64,000 bases of DNA from an uncultured delta proteobacterium (GTDB taxonomy: Bacteria; Myxococcota_A; Polyangia; Fen-1088), in contig CAVYGB010000008.1 of NCBI GenBank assembly GCA_963767925.1, forward strand, positions 1,600,001 through 1,664,000, read 5' to 3'. The notes beneath the pieces are model-generated. The model had not been told where the DNA came from. It saw nothing but the letters and a program-made list of their open reading frames with translations, and did not search any database. Below are positions 7,146 to 50,282 of this stretch, in pieces. Each line of letters begins with the position of its first letter. The first letter of the stretch is position 1. The translations under genes were made by a program, and so were the position numbers.

Positions 7146-7310
7146 CTAGTCCCCTGGAACGGTGATTTCTTGCATATCTCGGCGGTCCTCTTCGTCCCTG
7201 GCTGCGTTGCTCGTCGGTTAAATACGCCCGGTATTCGCCCTCCTCGCGCCTTGCCAGGAACGAAGATGCCTCGCCGACATATGCAAGACTTCACCTTTCC
7301 AGGGGACTAG
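7146..7310 (-). mobile_element. CTAG-bounded ~160-bp hairpin element, copy A (MITE/REPIN-like)
   Basis: Perfect 14-bp terminal inverted repeat CTAGTCCCCTGGAA...TTCCAGGGGACTAG extending into ~57-bp imperfect arms. The 50-nt core (7203-7252, minus strand) is homologous to the cores at 30987 and 31148. Confidence 0.8.
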
Positions 7311-14517: not shown

Positions 14518-15117
14518 ATGGAGACCCCTCCCGGGTCTCGTTCCGCGACGTCTACGGCCGCTGCGACTGCCCTCGAGTTCCGGCCTTACCGGCGTTTCGT
14601 TTCGCTGGTCGCGCTCGGCGTCATCTTCGTCGGTGGCGGCTACCTGCTGGTCTCGGTCGGCGTGAGCATCTACCGCCAGCGAAACGCGGTCCCGACCGGC
14701 ACCCAGGTGAGCGCCCAGCTCAGCCTGCGCGAGATGCTGGGCTGCTGGCAGGAGCTGTCCGACGTGACCGAGGGGCTGCAGAAGCACCTCGAAAAGTCGC
14801 ACTATCTCCTCGGTGGCTACGACCAGGCGGAGGCCCAGCGCTGGGCCAGCGAGGGGGCCTTCTGGCGCAACCAGTGGAAGGCGCTCGGTGAACGCTGTCG
14901 CCTCAACCGACCGGTGCTCGCCCGCAGCGGCAAGGAGCTCGACGAGATGGTCGGGGCCTATCGCGAGCTGGAAGACACCGCCTCGGTCTATACCAAAGAG
15001 CTTTTGCGCTTCGGACGCGAGCAGGCGCCACGCCTGGACCGCATTCGTGTCCGGATCAACCGTATCGGCAAGCGCCTCGAGAACAAGCAGGGGCGCATGG
15101 GAGATTCAGAACCATGA
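14518..15117 (+). CDS. Hypothetical single-pass membrane protein (start uncertain: 14470 TTA, 14491 GTG or 14518 ATG)
   Basis: One TM helix (FVSLVALGVIFVGGGYLLVSVGVSIY) followed by a helical domain; ATGA overlap with the helicase start. Confidence 0.7.
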   Translation: METPPGSRSATSTAAATALEFRPYRRFVSLVALGVIFVGGGYLLVSVGVSIYRQRNAVPTGTQVSAQLSLREMLGCWQELSDVTEGLQKHLEKSHYLLGGYDQAEAQRWASEGAFWRNQWKALGERCRLNRPVLARSGKELDEMVGAYRELEDTASVYTKELLRFGREQAPRLDRIRVRINRIGKRLENKQGRMGDSEP

Positions 15118-17450
15118 ACGAGAACGAACCAGCCCCTCCGGCCGAGTCCGAGGCGGCTGAACCCCGCTCGGAGCAGTCCGGGCAGCCCGGGTCCACCCAA
15201 CTGTCTTTTGCCGCGCTCGACCTCGGGCCGGACGTGATCCGGGCGCTGACCGACATGGGCTTTGCCGAGCCCATGCAGGTCCAGGCCGAGGTGATCCCGC
15301 GGGTCCTCACCGCCCGAGATCTGATGGTGCAGTCGCGCACCGGATCGGGCAAGACCGCCGCCTTCGGCATCCCCCTGGTGGATCGCATCGTCAATCCGGA
15401 CAACAAGTTCGTGCAGGCCATCGTGCTGCTGCCCACCCGGGAGCTGGCCCTGCAGGTGGCCGGGGAGATCGCCCGCATCGCGGCCCATCGACCCATCGAG
15501 GTGGTTCCGGTCTACGGCGGCGCGCCCATGGGGCGGCAGATCGAGCAGCTCCGGGCGGGCGGGCAGATCGTCTGTGGCACCCCCGGGCGCGTCCTCGACC
15601 ACCTCCGGCGGGGGACCCTGGTGCTGGACCGGGTGCGCTGCGTGGTCCTCGACGAGTGTGACGAGATGTTGTCGATGGGCTTTCAGGAGGACATCGAGGC
15701 CATCGTCGAGCGGACGCCGAGCGACCGCCAGACGCTGCTGTTCTCTGCCACCGTGCCCGAAGGGATCCAGCGGCTGGCCCGGCGGTTTCTCCGCGACCCC
15801 GAGATGGTCAAGCTGTCGGCCGACTTCGTGGGGGTCCACGAGATCCGACACGTCTATTACGCCATCCCGGGCGGGCAGCGCGAGGCTGAGCTTCTGCGGG
15901 TGCTCGAGTTCGAGAACCCGGTGCGGGCCATCGTCTTTTGCAACACGCGGGAAGAGACCGGCCGGGTGGCCGAGTTCCTGCGCCGGCAGGGGTTCGAGGC
16001 GGAGGCGATCTCCTCGGACCTCTCGCAGGTGGATCGAGAGAAGGTCATGGGGCGCATGCGGGCCGGCTCGATCCGGTTCCTGGTGGCCACCGACGTCGCC
16101 GCCCGGGGGATCGACCTCGAGGCGCTGTCCCACGTCATCAACTACACCTTCCCCGAGTCGCCCGAGGTGTACATCCACCGCACCGGTCGGACCGGGCGCG
16201 CGGGACGGCACGGCACCGCCATCTCGCTCATCGGACCCACCGAGGTCGGACCGTTTTATTACGTCAAGCTGCTGTACAAGATCCGGCCGGAGGAGCGCTC
16301 CTTGCCCTCCGAGGCCGAGATCCGGGCCAAGCGGGAGGGCGAGCGCATCCAGACCCTGCGCGCACGCCTCAACCGCGACCCGGGACCCCTCTGGCGCTCG
16401 CTGGCCCGGCGGTTGATGAGCGCCCTCGATGGCGAGCAACTCTGCGCGGGTCTGCTCGCCGAGACGTTCGAGCGGGTGACGTTCGAGCGAGAGGGGGCCA
16501 GCCCCCCGGCACCCCGGGTCGAGGACCGGGCCATTCCCTCCCGGCCGCGCGAGCCCGGGCCCCGTGAGTCCGTGTTCCGCGACTCGGGTCCCCGCGACTC
16601 GGGTCCCCGCGACTCGGGTCCTCGCGAGTCCGGGCCCCGCGAGCCCCGAGAGTCCGGCCTCCGGGATTCCGGCCCACGTGACGCCGGGCCCCGCGAGTCC
16701 GGCCCGCGGGATTCGGGTCCCCCCCGGGATTCGGGTCCCCGGGATTCCGGATCGCGCGACGCCGGGCCCCGCGAGTCCGGCCCGCGGGATTCGGGTCCCC
16801 CCCGGGATTCGGGCCTCCGGGACTACGGGTCGAAGCCCCGCACGGACCGACCGGGGCGCGAGCGCTTCCGGGAGGACCGCGACCGGGGCCGCCGCCCGCG
16901 GGCAGAAGGCCCGGGCGATCGTCCGCCGTCCGATCGGCTGTCGACCCGCGAGGACCGACCCCGCCGGGAGCGCCGGCCCCCGCGGGAAGCGGGTCCCCCG
17001 CCCGTTCCCCCGCTGACGACGACGGTGACCGAGCCCGAGAGCACCACCCCGCGTCCCGCGGTGACCGGCGACCGCGACTTCTGGTCGGTATGGCGCGAGG
17101 ACGGCAGCAGCAGCGCCGCCCCGGTTGCCCCGACGGCGCCCGCGCCGTCGGCCGCGCCTTCGTTCGCTCCGCCGGCCCCTGCCCTGCCCGGGCCCGGGCT
17201 CTCCGAGTCCGATCAGGCCCGCCTGTTCCTGAACCTGGGACGGAAGGACGACGCCACCGCCGAGGAGGTGGCGGGGCTGTTCGGAGAGCTGGGGGTCGCG
17301 ATCCCGCCCGAGGACATCGAGCTCATGAACACGCACTGCTACGTCAACGTCCCCCCCGGGGACGCCGAGCGGCTGTGCACGTCCTTGAGCGGGCGCGAGC
17401 GGCAAGGCCGGCGCCTCTCCTGCGAGCCGGCCCGCCCCCGACGCCGCTAG
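15114..17450 (+). CDS. DEAD/DEAH-box RNA helicase with C-terminal DbpA-type RNA-binding domain
   Basis: SRTGSGKT, PTRELA, TPGR, DECD, SAT, ARGID, HRTGRTGR; C-terminal RLFLNLGRKD domain. Confidence 0.93.
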   Translation: MNENEPAPPAESEAAEPRSEQSGQPGSTQLSFAALDLGPDVIRALTDMGFAEPMQVQAEVIPRVLTARDLMVQSRTGSGKTAAFGIPLVDRIVNPDNKFVQAIVLLPTRELALQVAGEIARIAAHRPIEVVPVYGGAPMGRQIEQLRAGGQIVCGTPGRVLDHLRRGTLVLDRVRCVVLDECDEMLSMGFQEDIEAIVERTPSDRQTLLFSATVPEGIQRLARRFLRDPEMVKLSADFVGVHEIRHVYYAIPGGQREAELLRVLEFENPVRAIVFCNTREETGRVAEFLRRQGFEAEAISSDLSQVDREKVMGRMRAGSIRFLVATDVAARGIDLEALSHVINYTFPESPEVYIHRTGRTGRAGRHGTAISLIGPTEVGPFYYVKLLYKIRPEERSLPSEAEIRAKREGERIQTLRARLNRDPGPLWRSLARRLMSALDGEQLCAGLLAETFERVTFEREGASPPAPRVEDRAIPSRPREPGPRESVFRDSGPRDSGPRDSGPRESGPREPRESGLRDSGPRDAGPRESGPRDSGPPRDSGPRDSGSRDAGPRESGPRDSGPPRDSGLRDYGSKPRTDRPGRERFREDRDRGRRPRAEGPGDRPPSDRLSTREDRPRRERRPPREAGPPPVPPLTTTVTEPESTTPRPAVTGDRDFWSVWREDGSSSAAPVAPTAPAPSAAPSFAPPAPALPGPGLSESDQARLFLNLGRKDDATAEEVAGLFGELGVAIPPEDIELMNTHCYVNVPPGDAERLCTSLSGRERQGRRLSCEPARPRRR
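16548..16829 (+). repeat. Intragenic 15-bp tandem repeat encoding R(D/E)SGP pentapeptides
   Basis: About 18 degenerate units such as CGCGACTCGGGTCCC, with a higher-order duplication of 78-nt period. Confidence 0.92.
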
Positions 17451-29538: not shown

Positions 29539-30930
29539 CTACGAAGCTCGCGGCTCCGGCTTCTGGTCGGAGAGGTCCACCTGTCGGGCCAGCTCGAGCA
29601 GTTGCTCGGGCGTGTTCAGGCTCGGATCGTCGAGCACCCGCTCGAGCAGCCCTTCGAGGATCTTCCCCACCTGGCGGCCCGGGGCGATGGCCAGGGCCTG
29701 CATGACGTCGCGGCCGCCGACCGCGAGATCCTTCACCGTGAGGACCGCGTCGGCCGAGACCACGTCGGCCACCCGCTGGCGCAGGTCGCGGGTCTCCAGA
29801 TCGGGCTGCTCGCCGAAGCCCCGTCCGACCACGTCGGCCTCGCGCAGGGCCAGCAGAGCCGGCAGCTCGGCCACCCCCACCCGGCGCAGGAACCGGCGCA
29901 CGGTGCCGTCGCTCCATTCGGGCGTGTAATAGAACATGTGGTTGGCCACCAGGCGCTCGACGGTCTCCCGCTCGGCCCCGGGGAGCTTGAGGCGATGGCA
30001 GATTGTCACCGCCATCTCGGCGCCCAGGTGCTCGTGCCGGTAGAAGCTGTATTCGCCCGGCATCCCCGGCTTTGGCTCGCGGGTGCGGGGCTTGCCGACG
30101 TCGTGAAGGAGGGCGCCCAGCCGGAGCACCACCTCGCCCGAGGCGCCGGTCAAGGTGGCGAGACCGTGTCCGTATACGTCGTACTTGTGAAAGCGGTTCT
30201 GGGTGCAGCCGCGGCCCTCGAGCAGCTCGGGGAGCACCTCGGCCAGCAGGTCGGTCTCGCGCAGGAGATCGACGCCGCGGGCGGGGGCCTCGCTGGCCAG
30301 GATCTTGAAGAGCTCGTCGCGGACCCGCTCGGCCGAAACCTTCCGGAAGGAGTCGAGGGTGGCGGGGATGGCCCGCAAGGTGGGCCCGTCGATGGTGAAG
30401 TCGAGCTGGGTTGCTTGCCGGACCGCCCGCATGGGCCGCAGGCCGTCCTCGCGGAAGCGCTGCAGAGGATCGCCCACCGCCCGCACGAGCCGGCGCCCGA
30501 TGTCTCCCTGCCCGTCGAACGGATCGAGGAGGGCCCCCGACAGGGGATCGTAGGCGATGGCGTTCATGGTCAGATCGCGGCGGGCCAGGTCCTCCTCGAG
30601 CGTCTTGCCGAACTCCACCGAAGAGGGGCGCCGCCCGTCCAGGTAGACCCCCTCGCCCCGGAAGGTCGTGACCTCCACCGGACGGCCGGCGGGGGGCGCC
30701 CCGGTGAGGACCGTGACGGTGCCGTGCTGCAACCCCGTGGGGATGGCGAACCGCTGACCGAACAGCTTCAGCACGGCGTCGGGCGCGGCGCTGGTTGCGA
30801 CGTCGAAGTCCTTCGGCGAGCGCCCCAGCACCAGATCGCGCACGCCGCCGCCCACCAGATGAGCCTGGTGTCCTGCCTCCTGCAGGCGCCGGCACACCGC
30901 CACCACGTCGTCGGGTATCCGGGCGCGCAC
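29539..30930 (-). CDS. cca: Class II tRNA nucleotidyltransferase (CCA- or A-adding) with HD domain
   Basis: LVGGGVRD, DFDVAT, EVTTFR..Y.DGRRP, EDLARRDLTMNA, RFREDGLR, LLHDVGKP. Confidence 0.88.
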   Translation of the reverse strand: MRARIPDDVVAVCRRLQEAGHQAHLVGGGVRDLVLGRSPKDFDVATSAAPDAVLKLFGQRFAIPTGLQHGTVTVLTGAPPAGRPVEVTTFRGEGVYLDGRRPSSVEFGKTLEEDLARRDLTMNAIAYDPLSGALLDPFDGQGDIGRRLVRAVGDPLQRFREDGLRPMRAVRQATQLDFTIDGPTLRAIPATLDSFRKVSAERVRDELFKILASEAPARGVDLLRETDLLAEVLPELLEGRGCTQNRFHKYDVYGHGLATLTGASGEVVLRLGALLHDVGKPRTREPKPGMPGEYSFYRHEHLGAEMAVTICHRLKLPGAERETVERLVANHMFYYTPEWSDGTVRRFLRRVGVAELPALLALREADVVGRGFGEQPDLETRDLRQRVADVVSADAVLTVKDLAVGGRDVMQALAIAPGRQVGKILEGLLERVLDDPSLNTPEQLLELARQVDLSDQKPEPRAS

Positions 30931-31094
30931 TAGTGCCTCACGGCAGAAGATCGGTCATGGTTTCGGCGTCGAGGCGCCCCGCCAGCAAGGCGCGACGACG
31001 AGCAATACTGAACGCATTTCGAGGAGGAGCAACGCCGCTGGCGCGGATGCATCGGCGGCGAAACCATGGTCGAGATTCTGCCATGGGGCACCAG
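30930..31094 (+). mobile_element. CTAG/CCAG-bounded ~160-bp hairpin element, copy B
   Basis: Arms CTAGTGCCTCACGGCAGAA...TTCTGCCATGGGGCACCAG; 50-nt core at 30987-31036. Confidence 0.8.
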
Positions 31095-31254
31095 TGCACC
31101 GCTCTCGAAATAGCGTCAAGGATCCGCCGACAAGCCTGCGGCCCCGCGAGGCGCGACGACGACGAATATCCGGCATATTCCGAGGAGGAGCAACGAAGCG
31201 GGGGCGCAGGATCGTCGGCGCAGCCTTGACGACATTTTGCGAGCGATGCACTAG
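31091..31254 (+). mobile_element. CCAG/CTAG-bounded ~160-bp hairpin element, copy C (tandem with B)
   Basis: Arms CCAGTGCACCGCTC...CGTCAAGG and CCTTGACG...GAGCGATGCACTAG; 50-nt core at 31148-31197. Confidence 0.8.
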
Positions 31255-31979
31255 CGGGTCTCGAGGGCCTGGCCGGCCGCCTGCAACGCGGCCAGGGCGC
31301 GGGCGGCGGCGTTCTGCTGGGCCTCTTTCTTGGACTTGCCCAGCGCGCGGCCGTACTCCTTGCTGCCGAGGTAGATGGCCACCTCGAAGGTCTTGTCGTG
31401 GTCCGGCCCTTCCTGCGCGATCACCGTGTAGGTGGGCGCCAGGTGCAGGCGGGCCTGGGAGATCTCCTGCAGGCGGGACTTGAAGTCCCGATCGGCCGCG
31501 GTGGAGGCCTGGGCCAGCTCGCTCTCGAACAGCCGTTCGGCCACCCGGTAGGCGGCGTCGAACCCCCCATCCCGGTAGACCGCTCCCACGAGGGCCTCGA
31601 GGGCGTCGGCCAGGATCGAGCGCTTCTGGCGGCCGCCGGCCTGCTCCTCGCCGCGGCCGAGGAAGATCCACTGGCCCAGGGCGAGCACCTCCGCCACCCG
31701 GGCCAGACCGGCCTCGTTGACCAGGGCCGCGCGCTTCTTCGACAGCTCACCTTCGGGATGCTCCGGGTGGTGGCGCATCAGGAGGTCGCTCATCACCAGG
31801 GCGATCACGGCGTCACCGAGGAACTCGAGCCGTTCGTTGTCCGCCCTGCCCTCCTCGGCCCGCTCGTTGAGCCAGGACTTGTGCGTCAGCGCAGTCTCAC
31901 ACAGGCGCTCATCGAGAAAGTGGTACCCGAGCCGTTGCTCGAGCGCGCTGTACCGGGCGTCACCTCTGGCGGCGATCAT
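31251..31979 (-). CDS. rnc: Ribonuclease III
   Basis: ALTHKS, NERLEFLGDA, LADALEALVGA; dsRBD with DFKSRLQE, GPDHDKTF, SKKEAQQNAA. Confidence 0.97.
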   Translation of the reverse strand: MIAARGDARYSALEQRLGYHFLDERLCETALTHKSWLNERAEEGRADNERLEFLGDAVIALVMSDLLMRHHPEHPEGELSKKRAALVNEAGLARVAEVLALGQWIFLGRGEEQAGGRQKRSILADALEALVGAVYRDGGFDAAYRVAERLFESELAQASTAADRDFKSRLQEISQARLHLAPTYTVIAQEGPDHDKTFEVAIYLGSKEYGRALGKSKKEAQQNAAARALAALQAAGQALETR

Positions 31980-48932: not shown

Positions 48933-50282
48933 TCACTCCTTGTCGGACTTCTCCGCTGGCTCGGCCGGTGCCTCGGGTGGGGGCGCGACAGGCGCCGGAG
49001 CGGGAGGTGGTGGCGCCGCCTCGGCCACCGGGGCTGCGGCCTCTCCCTCGCCCGCCGCAGCGGGCTCGTCCCAGCCACCGCGACGGCGACCGGTCCAGGC
49101 GGGCGGACCGCCGCCACCTGGAGGACGCTTGTCCCGGCCGGCGGGGGGCGGACCCCGTCGATCGCCGACCGCGGGCCGAGGGCCGCGGGGGGGACCCCCT
49201 CCGGGAAAACCACTGCGGTCGCCGCCGGGCCCGCGTCCTGCCCCGGCCGGAGCTCCAGGCCCACGGGGGGGCCGGGGGCCGCGATCACCTCCCCGGCCGA
49301 CATCGCCGGGCGGGCGACCGTCCCGGGGCGGCCCCGGGCCACGATCGGGCCGCGCATCTCTCAGATTTCCAGGAGGGCCGCCGCCCGGCCGGGGACCGCC
49401 GCGCGGTCCACCGCCGCCCGGTCCACCGCCGCCTGGTCCACCACCACCTGGTCCGTCGCGCCGGTCGCCCCGACCACCGCCGGGCCCAAAGCCGGCCCGG
49501 GGACGATCTCCACCCGGGCCGGGCGGGCCGCCGCCACCGGGACGCGGGCCGCCACGCGGTGGGCCGCCGCCCGGGCCATCCCGGCGATCGCCCCGTCCGC
49601 CCCGCGGTCCGTCGCCGCGCTTACCGCGGCCATCGCGGCGGTCGTCGCGCCCGGGGCGCGTGGGGCCGCCACGCGGCAGGTAGTCGATGGCGAAGTAGAA
49701 GTCGCCGCGCTTTTCCACCCCCTCGATGGGCTTGTCACCGGAGAGCACCCGCACGAGCCGGACGGTGCCCACCCGCTTGCCCACCACGGCGAGGGTCTCC
49801 ATCAGCCTGGCCAGGCGATCGCCGCTGATCTTCAGACCAGCCCCGACCGCCTCGGCGACCGGACCGGACCCGGGCGCTTCCTCGGGGGCGGGAGCCGGGG
49901 GCTCCTCGGCCGGAGAAGCCGGGGCCGCCTCGGCGGAGGTCTCCTCCGTCGCGCCCTCGACCGCCTCGTCGGGGGCCTTGTCGGTCGCGCCCTCGGCCTC
50001 GGCCGTGACCTCGGGGGCCGGCTCGCCGGAGGCCTCGACGGCCTCACCCGGCTCGCCGGCTTCCCCCTCGGACGTGGCGACGGCGTCGTCGCCGGCCGAT
50101 CCGGCCGCGGTCTCTTCGCGTGACTCTTCCGCCGCTCCGGCAGGAGCAGCGTCGGAGGTGGCCACCTCGGCGGGCGCCGCCTCGGGGGGCGGCTCAGCGG
50201 CCTTCATCGTTGCTTTTGTCGAACGCTCGATCTCGGCCGCCTGGCGGAGCAAGGTTCCCGGAAACTCGGTTACTGTCTTCAT
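48933..50282 (-). CDS. Hypothetical low-complexity protein (acidic N-terminal arm, small core, RGG/PRG-rich tail)
   Basis: 449-aa ORF with GGGGAG RBS and GC-ending codons typical of the window. Confidence 0.7.
   Translation of the reverse strand: MKTVTEFPGTLLRQAAEIERSTKATMKAAEPPPEAAPAEVATSDAAPAGAAEESREETAAGSAGDDAVATSEGEAGEPGEAVEASGEPAPEVTAEAEGATDKAPDEAVEGATEETSAEAAPASPAEEPPAPAPEEAPGSGPVAEAVGAGLKISGDRLARLMETLAVVGKRVGTVRLVRVLSGDKPIEGVEKRGDFYFAIDYLPRGGPTRPGRDDRRDGRGKRGDGPRGGRGDRRDGPGGGPPRGGPRPGGGGPPGPGGDRPRAGFGPGGGRGDRRDGPGGGGPGGGGPGGGGPRGGPRPGGGPPGNLRDARPDRGPGPPRDGRPPGDVGRGGDRGPRPPRGPGAPAGAGRGPGGDRSGFPGGGPPRGPRPAVGDRRGPPPAGRDKRPPGGGGPPAWTGRRRGGWDEPAAAGEGEAAAPVAEAAPPPPAPAPVAPPPEAPAEPAEKSDKE

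Follow-up and report, generated by a model that had tools for sequence, protein, structure and literature searches.

In the accessible parts of the literature, MITEs are described as derivatives of insertion sequences (IS) that have common ends, differ in their insides and are mostly confined to one genus (PMC2229807, PMC11602168, PMC10969869, PMC3184786, PMC3733652, PMC13037366, PMC3167613). The closest described systems are the IS630-related MITEs RUP of pneumococcus, Correia/NEMIS and ERIC/MITEEc1, which, in the available portions of the sources, resemble the elements analyzed here in several respects: they are 100-200 bp long and have no coding capacity, their terminal inverted repeats match those of IS elements and their ends contain TA, and they form a long stem-loop in intergenic positions and at stop codons (PMC2229807; PMC11602168). 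A MITE with IS-matching ends is in itself of a known kind; the unusual feature is the widely conserved folded core that extends across IS families. According to the usual view the inside of a MITE is arbitrary, an IS remnant and genus-bound, but here the inside is the conserved part. We found no description of a core shared across IS families in the openly readable literature, and ISfinder and the supplementary MITE catalogue of PMC11602168 may hold members.

The window, that is the whole stretch of DNA that was analyzed, comprises 64,000 nt (positions 1,600,001-1,664,000 of contig CAVYGB010000008.1) of assembly GCA_963767925.1 (9.34 Mb, 71% GC, 84% complete), which is referred to below as the host genome (G000). 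An earlier note on this DNA had pointed to three hairpin elements, and their coordinates, their CTAG or CCAG bounds and the periods of 161, 161 and 160 could be reproduced for all three copies:

7146..7310, core on the minus strand: MITE copy A of subfamily A, period 161, between an AMP-binding enzyme gene on one side and a Ser/Thr kinase gene on the other
7205..7251, minus strand: conserved tandem-G.A core of copy A
7146..7171, plus strand: terminal repeat of copy A, 23-24 of 26 positions identical to the right end of the IS630 elements L230 and L257
7285..7310, minus strand: second terminal repeat of copy A, the end lying 59 nt ahead of the core
30930..31094, plus strand: MITE copy B of subfamily B, period 161, ends identical at 20-21 of 26 positions to the IS630-type element L348
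30988..31034, plus strand: core of copy B
31091..31254, plus strand: MITE copy C of subfamily C, period 160, left end identical at 20 of 26 positions to the left end of the IS630-type element L264
31149..31195, plus strand: core of copy C
31251..31979, minus strand: rnc (ribonuclease III), host gene and upstream neighbour, outside the element
29539..30930, minus strand: host gene of the CCA-adding/poly(A) polymerase family, downstream neighbour, with all NCBIfam matches below the cut-off

Copies B and C have one CCAG junction in common and are both antisense at the rnc junction. The right CTAG of copy C contains the rnc stop codon, and the left CTAG of copy B coincides in part with the GTG predicted as start codon of the minus-strand CCA-adding enzyme gene. 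Also on the minus strand (30955-31251), a 98-codon frame begins at a GTG that overlaps the rnc stop, crosses both elements and ends 25 nt short of the start of the next gene and out of frame with it.

All window copies are 164-165 bp long and have no coding capacity for a transposase. Within each copy the arms are reverse-complementary over 57-59 nt (45-50 matches per copy), and the ungapped 50-nt centre is common to all three, with 35-37 of the 50 positions agreeing in pairwise comparison. The arms had also been described as dissimilar between copies, which applies to A and B (18 of 52 left-arm positions identical) and to A and C (20/52), but not wholly to B and C, which agree at 27 of 52 positions. 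Folding of copies B and C gave a z-score of -6.5 (200 shuffles each). A covariance model returned exactly three strong matches in the window (63-82 bits), followed by the next match at 16 bits. In line with the earlier note, no match to Y1_Tnp, DUF772, DDE_Tnp_1 or DDE_3 was present in the window. Its view of a non-autonomous element is shared by us; the elements are short, multi-copy and dispersed. In Rfam no family exceeded the gathering threshold for the element: in the window only tRNA did, with two sub-threshold matches on the B-C pair, and 14 other loci had nothing above threshold. Apart from the hairpins, the window contains 15-nt tandem repeats at 16538-16831 and 49395-49454; the former array falls within a 778-aa ORF (15114-17450), where it probably encodes a low-complexity segment.

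In the host genome the core profile (E<0.001) detected 68 copies on 9 of 13 contigs, and the covariance model detected 67. The 68 copies belong to subfamilies A (37 copies), C (26) and B (5). As the arms are near-identical inside each subfamily, they are not free per copy, and the impression of arms that vary copy by copy had to be given up: each window copy stands for a different multi-copy subfamily, and its arms recur almost unchanged at other places of the genome. Both ends are present in 62 of the 68 copies; CTAG forms the outer tetramer in 48 of 64 cases on the left and in 56 of 66 on the right. As this tetramer is palindromic, a TA duplication and a CTAG duplication are inseparable in the host genome. 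CTAG is rare in this genome (2140 sites) and is used by several IS families. One end is a predicted TAG stop codon in 30 of the 68 copies, and across the genome 617 of the 2140 CTAG sites are a stop codon. Nine tandem pairs were found in which the two copies share a junction, and nested and deleted copies are common. Furthermore, the arm variants of subfamily A are complementary at one site in 23 of 32 cases, and subfamily C has multi-base swaps.

Orthologous sites without the element exist in relatives: rnc and the gene of the CCA-adding/poly(A) polymerase family are adjacent, with the element absent, in all five relatives examined, and G001, a genome of the same genus, lacks the element at the site of copy A. 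The flanks of these empty sites are too diverged for a base-exact comparison. Two DNA sequencing runs with small shares yielded short pieces only, mostly from other organisms. Based on our own crude gene calls, the orientation relative to transcription has no bias in the host genome (10 sense versus 20 antisense) or in a Nitrospirales chromosome (G042; 11 versus 6). The same holds for the orientation relative to the replication strand (30/60, 37/60, 29/60 and 29/58); a pattern that seemed to be present on contig C2 and in G042 was gone on counting. Other abundant repeats of the host genome are a CRISPR-like 36-mer (about 75 copies) and GC-rich hairpins of a family that exceeds 100 copies, and a 467-bp CTAG-bounded element with long terminal repeats, internal tandem units and no 120-aa ORF is located at C2:607974-608444.

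The conserved fold claimed in the earlier note is borne out by the core, which forms a hairpin on one strand only. It starts with two fixed pairs, which are followed by a tandem GA/GA, one pair, another tandem GA/GA and further pairs, often by a third tandem, and finally by a variable stem-loop. Although the search pattern allowed any combination at the pair between the tandems, it is C-G in 75, G-C in 51, G-G in 3 and C-C in none of 129 distinct cores (complementary in 126/129), and the pair next to it is Watson-Crick in 109 and G-T in 6 of these cores; the sequences are related, so that these cases do not represent independent events. For 19 pairs taken together, 85% of the cells pair compared with 61% in shuffled alignments, and covariation reaches 0.575 compared with 0.176 for shuffled and at most 0.147 for slid alignments, values that include 22 core letters fixed by the search pattern and kin that are not independent. 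The arms have the same strand polarity as the core: on the core strand of 56 short elements, mismatches are biased toward A.G (218 versus 27 C.T), G.T (151 versus 55 A.C), G.G (63 versus 27 C.C) and A.A (25 versus 5 T.T). Both the covariation and the purine-rich mismatches are equally compatible with RNA and with DNA.

Small GC-GNA-GC loops occur in six inserts behind the core and also in a neighbouring 51-bp family (37 GAA, 13 GCA); of the 22 loops in linkers, 20 have the GNA form on either of the two strands. We considered the GNA loops as proof of a DNA form, but they serve this purpose only partly, since the linker C-NNN-G is ambiguous and reads as a UNCG-type RNA tetraloop on the opposite strand. 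According to the accessible part of one study, GNA-type DNA mini-hairpins are found where priming on single strands takes place, and their binding of SSB is poor (PMC13037366). The 51-bp family itself is CTAG-bounded, has about 24 copies in the host genome (for example C2:213460-213514 and C2:562215-562269), and combines a single tandem GA pair with a GC-GAA/GCA-GC loop; of its two ends one is fixed and the other variable, and 4 of the 24 copies adjoin the main element.

A second constant of the family is its spacing. In 58 of 121 copies found with the sequence pattern a YTAR motif starts 58-60 nt ahead of the core. Among 30 loci found with the model, 21 have a clear terminal repeat, which begins 56-60 nt ahead of the core in 19 cases, and the remaining 9 cores have no clear repeat. 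Despite this constant spacing the total length of the model-found elements varies from 162 to 295 bp (about 160-295 bp for the family). Of 110 elements with repeats, 66 measure 150-179 bp, 10 measure 230-249 bp and 25 measure 260-289 bp. What stays constant is therefore how far the core lies from the 5' end of the strand that folds. The long forms have an extra small hairpin, and in 13 of 26 the opposite strand also has a second core in degenerate form, 55-58 nt away from the other end. Furthermore, ends and centres occur in different combinations: an IS630-ended copy in the host genome and a copy with unrelated arms in another genome (G007) have exactly the same 47-nt core, and in G042 the same end is found with other centres. 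Some variants of this architecture were noticed in passing. Two G042 elements of about 180 bp (L298:7789-7969 and L313:5349-5528) combine core-type ends with a different centre that contains GA tandems. In the same chromosome short elements are repeatedly nested at one position within another repeat (L271, L281, L282, L290, L302, L307, L311, L318) and have spread as a composite. At three further loci (L038, L080, L203) a second repeat directly follows the core, in one case in two copies.

The earlier note had connected CTAG with the IS630 family, and this link is strengthened by the ends of A, B and C, which over roughly their first 25 bp match three different IS630 elements of relatives (in the case of A, with its right end). 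The partners are L230, L255 and L257 for subfamily A, L348 for B and L264, of which only one IS end was located, for C. The NCBIfam IS630 cut-off is exceeded by L230, L255, L251 and L263, and DDE_3 matches are present in the L348 region and at L264. The likeness to the IS630 partners stops after about 25-30 bp: the inner arms have no similarity to the partner ends (p 0.06-0.97), and for an origin by internal deletion from IS630 no homology past the terminal repeat was found. Although the copies are near-identical, the host genome (assembly 84% complete) has no match to DDE_3, the IS630 transposase, which indicates that the mobilizer is missing from the assembly or has been lost.

Across the whole family we compared 97 distinct left ends with 58 IS ends, and 24 of them had a partner with at least 13 of 18 positions identical, compared with 0 of 97 internal segments and 14 of 1940 shuffles; the 73 ends without a partner refer to this small library of 58 IS ends. 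The partners are of the IS630, IS1182 and IS5 types. IS630 and IS5/IS1182 are separate transposase families, and in our set the IS630 proteins match no IS5 or IS1182 model. For IS1182, L169 and L197 score over the cut-off, and L168 and L188 have IS1182 as their best match below it; the IS5 partners L180, L189 and L190 are over the NCBIfam cut-off. In one Vicinamibacterales chromosome a MITE (L095) and an IS carry the same end, with 16 of 18 bases identical. The G042 chromosome, which has 147 cores, allowed us to read the target site: in the 50 of 58 short copies with both ends readable, the flanks are TAA/TAA in 22, TTA/TTA in 10, mixed in 5 and other in 13 cases (p = 4e-5, four classes), which corresponds to a direct 3-bp duplication. 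The target type thus follows the end, as expected if each shell has its own DDE enzyme. These results leave only part of the proposal that the ends are unconserved and that an enzyme reads structure. The ends are conserved per subfamily and copy the terminal repeats of DDE insertion sequences, and the direct duplications in another member family also speak against recognition of structure only, so that the idea of structure recognition survives for the core and not for the ends or the mobilizing enzyme.

A transposase flanked by the same core, as the earlier note had envisaged, did not emerge: none recurs beside about 110 loci, and no core lies inside the IS ends of 76 loci, where six strong matches turned out to be separate neighbouring elements. 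Clustering of the neighbours of loci of at least 1.5 kb among L001-L156 returned common host families and the element's own frames, but no transposase. Only the IS1182-type pair has homology in the inner arm, namely between the left end of the host-genome IS1182 and the arms of L009 and L030 (p 0.002-0.016). In the host genome two such IS1182 left ends (C10:1123936-1125808 and C9:17837-19706; L169, L170) are MITE-arm-like over about 55 nt, followed by a half-core-like stretch. Judged from these sequences, it is possible that this IS1182 represents a snapshot of an exchange between IS and MITE.

Of 40 relatives, 12 contain the exact core pattern, for which reversed-pattern controls gave no match, and in the species collection the pattern occurs at 124 or more places; about 15 phyla are represented among the matches listed (80 titles), some of them by single assembled genomes that are possibly mis-binned. 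We sampled 150 genomes each from the Ottowia phylum and from the phylum of the window, and a covariance model built from 85 cores matches 31 of the former and 40 of the latter (21-27%), counts that were obtained without a decoy control and include weak matches that were only partly checked. Carriers in culture are Ottowia, Iodobacter and a conjugative Caballeronia plasmid. The latter is the one true plasmid member in the plasmid and phage collections, an unannotated element of about 240 bp between convergent genes on the conjugative IncP plasmid of Caballeronia grimmiae (NZ_CP084278.1; L331:1450-1700); the other matches in these collections are short or lie within genes, the inspection of loci covering H1 and H3. 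In addition, two members are located on one viral contig.

Taken together, it is probable in our view that the three hairpins belong to a modular super-family of non-autonomous MITEs, in which ends can be swapped and the fold has a cis-acting role on single-stranded DNA. One unit would consist of a target duplication, an IS-copied terminal repeat of about 25 bp, an inner arm of about 30 bp, the core and the mirror arm. Mobilization in trans, which the earlier note had also proposed, is very likely, as the ends match DDE insertion sequences: cut-and-paste would be carried out by whichever DDE transposase reads the terminal repeat, here those of three different IS630 elements and elsewhere those of IS1182 and IS5. 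Insertion at CTAG/YTAR and on stop codons is well explained by a DDE transposase that reads the IS-type terminal repeat. The reason why the core and the strand-biased arms are kept would be the folding of one DNA strand into a long hairpin with the tandem G.A ladder at its tip, about 58 nt from the end. This fold may help its own copy to spread in cis, most likely as a signal on transiently single-stranded DNA at the replication fork or during conjugation or transformation, which would resist SSB and be read by a putative conserved host factor. Ends and cores would be exchanged between lineages, and fold-back copying could restore the mirror arm. The core common to phyla and transposase families and the ruler-like spacing point to a cis-acting step in amplification or travel.

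It is conceivable that the hairpin acts as RNA instead, and in that case DDE-mobilized MITEs would be transcribed by read-through and the G.A ladder of the transcript hairpin would bind a host protein or tune RNase III or termination, so that insertions at gene ends would be tolerated; we regard such a role as rather unlikely. Tandem G.A pairs are common in RNA, the linker is readable as a UNCG tetraloop and 30 of 68 copies sit on stop codons, although 617 of the 2140 CTAG sites are stop codons in any case. Furthermore, MITE transcripts that fold and regulate neighbours are described in the accessible parts of two papers (PMC2229807, PMC3733652). However, the fold is restricted to one strand and yet the folding strand is not preferentially transcribed (10 versus 20; G042 11 versus 6), both copies at the rnc junction are antisense, and there is no obvious reason why an RNA should keep a constant distance to a DNA end. 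Symmetric ends insert either way, so that the orientation tests are compatible with a DNA or an RNA form, and as a replication-strand bias is missing, nothing points positively to a step linked to the fork. For selection to act among MITE lineages a benefit in cis is needed, which favours the DNA strand over the transcript. The constant spacing would also suit a double-stranded site for a DNA-bending host protein that helps the ends to meet, the hairpin look being secondary, and IHF in Correia elements is a precedent in the available text of PMC2229807; however, the duplex core is no palindrome, because GA faces GA, and yet isolated pairs covary, which a duplex site leaves unexplained; this is the least credible of the readings considered here.

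We think it very improbable that the hairpin is a functionless relic, whose core is kept by palindrome conversion from arm to arm and copy to copy and was moved between IS ends by chance recombination. The arm variants do assort as if converted (23/32 in A, multi-base swaps in C), and nested and deleted copies are frequent. But conversion restores perfect symmetry and can therefore not maintain G.A opposite G.A or a single covarying pair between tandems, and it leaves the strand-biased mismatches and the constant spacing across about 15 phyla unexplained. No more plausible is an HUH tyrosine transposase of the RAYT/IS200 type that would recognize the core in single strands of DNA and cut a set distance away, with the IS-like ends as passengers. 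One-strand fold and constant spacing would suit such an enzyme, and two of the 11 Y1_Tnp genes of the host genome lie less than 1 kb from a copy. However, these genes have repeats of their own, a Y1_Tnp match is absent from 9 of 16 core-bearing genomes (several of them incomplete), including one chromosome with 68 cores, and no transposase recurs at the roughly 110 loci inspected. HUH chemistry is not known to make direct target duplications, but these are seen in the G042 members, and the target type follows the IS end. RAYT was rejected as an unlikely mobilizer on the basis of its own repeats and the patchy distribution of Y1_Tnp, and a one-ended model of the Helitron/IS91 type, which had been considered in view of the more variable left tetramers, was dropped because of the IS ends and direct duplications. 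The RAYT-like Y1 HUH genes are dispersed over 11 places in the host genome, for example C10:706280-706828 (L158); they match the NCBIfam REP tyrosine transposase below the cut-off, and several are flanked by their own inverted repeats.

Within the preferred reading of modular MITEs with a cis-acting fold, we tentatively suggest, as a possibility with somewhat doubtful prospects, that the unit of selection is the folded core and not the transposon. The core would then be a single-strand signal that recruits unrelated DDE IS ends at a fixed 58 nt and, as part of the same claim, a priming or SSB-excluding signal read by a host factor, with an edge in copying or in cell-to-cell transfer. If this were true, it would be a parasite of insertion sequences that is independent of the transposase family and present in a fifth to a quarter of the genomes of at least two phyla, and a single-strand step in the DDE-driven spread of MITEs would be implied. 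For annotation, the model makes a very common intergenic hairpin class accessible, which MITE catalogues based on ends or identity would split into many unrelated families.

Among the known hairpin systems, integron attC sites are conserved-structure hairpins of variable sequence with strand-biased mismatches, a property that the present family has in common with them, but it has no integrase and no cassettes and consists of dispersed copies with IS ends. The 3' side of the core may resemble the phiX174 assembly site. Single-strand initiation signals such as ssiA of RSF1010, the G4 origin and primosome assembly sites are also similar, as they are described in the accessible part of the source as folded single-stranded DNA with G.A-closed mini-hairpins and poor SSB binding; the named 7-letter mini-hairpin of ssiA also occurs in the long-form linker, a likeness of structure alone (PMC13037366). 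These signals are, however, single-copy parts of replicons with priming and not MITE cores. REP/REPIN/BIME elements with their RAYT are likewise multi-copy extragenic palindromes with tandem clusters and presumed single-strand recognition. However, REPINs conserve the ends and vary the centre, and the present family has no GTAG/CGTC tag and no end palindromes flanking a RAYT gene, but has DDE IS-type ends, target duplication and a distribution that does not require RAYT. RUP, Correia/NEMIS and ERIC/MITEEc1 are restricted to a genus or family and have cores that are unrelated between families, as far as the available text of PMC3184786 goes, whereas in the present family the same covarying core recurs in different phyla and together with IS630, IS1182 and IS5 ends, and keeps a constant distance from the end.
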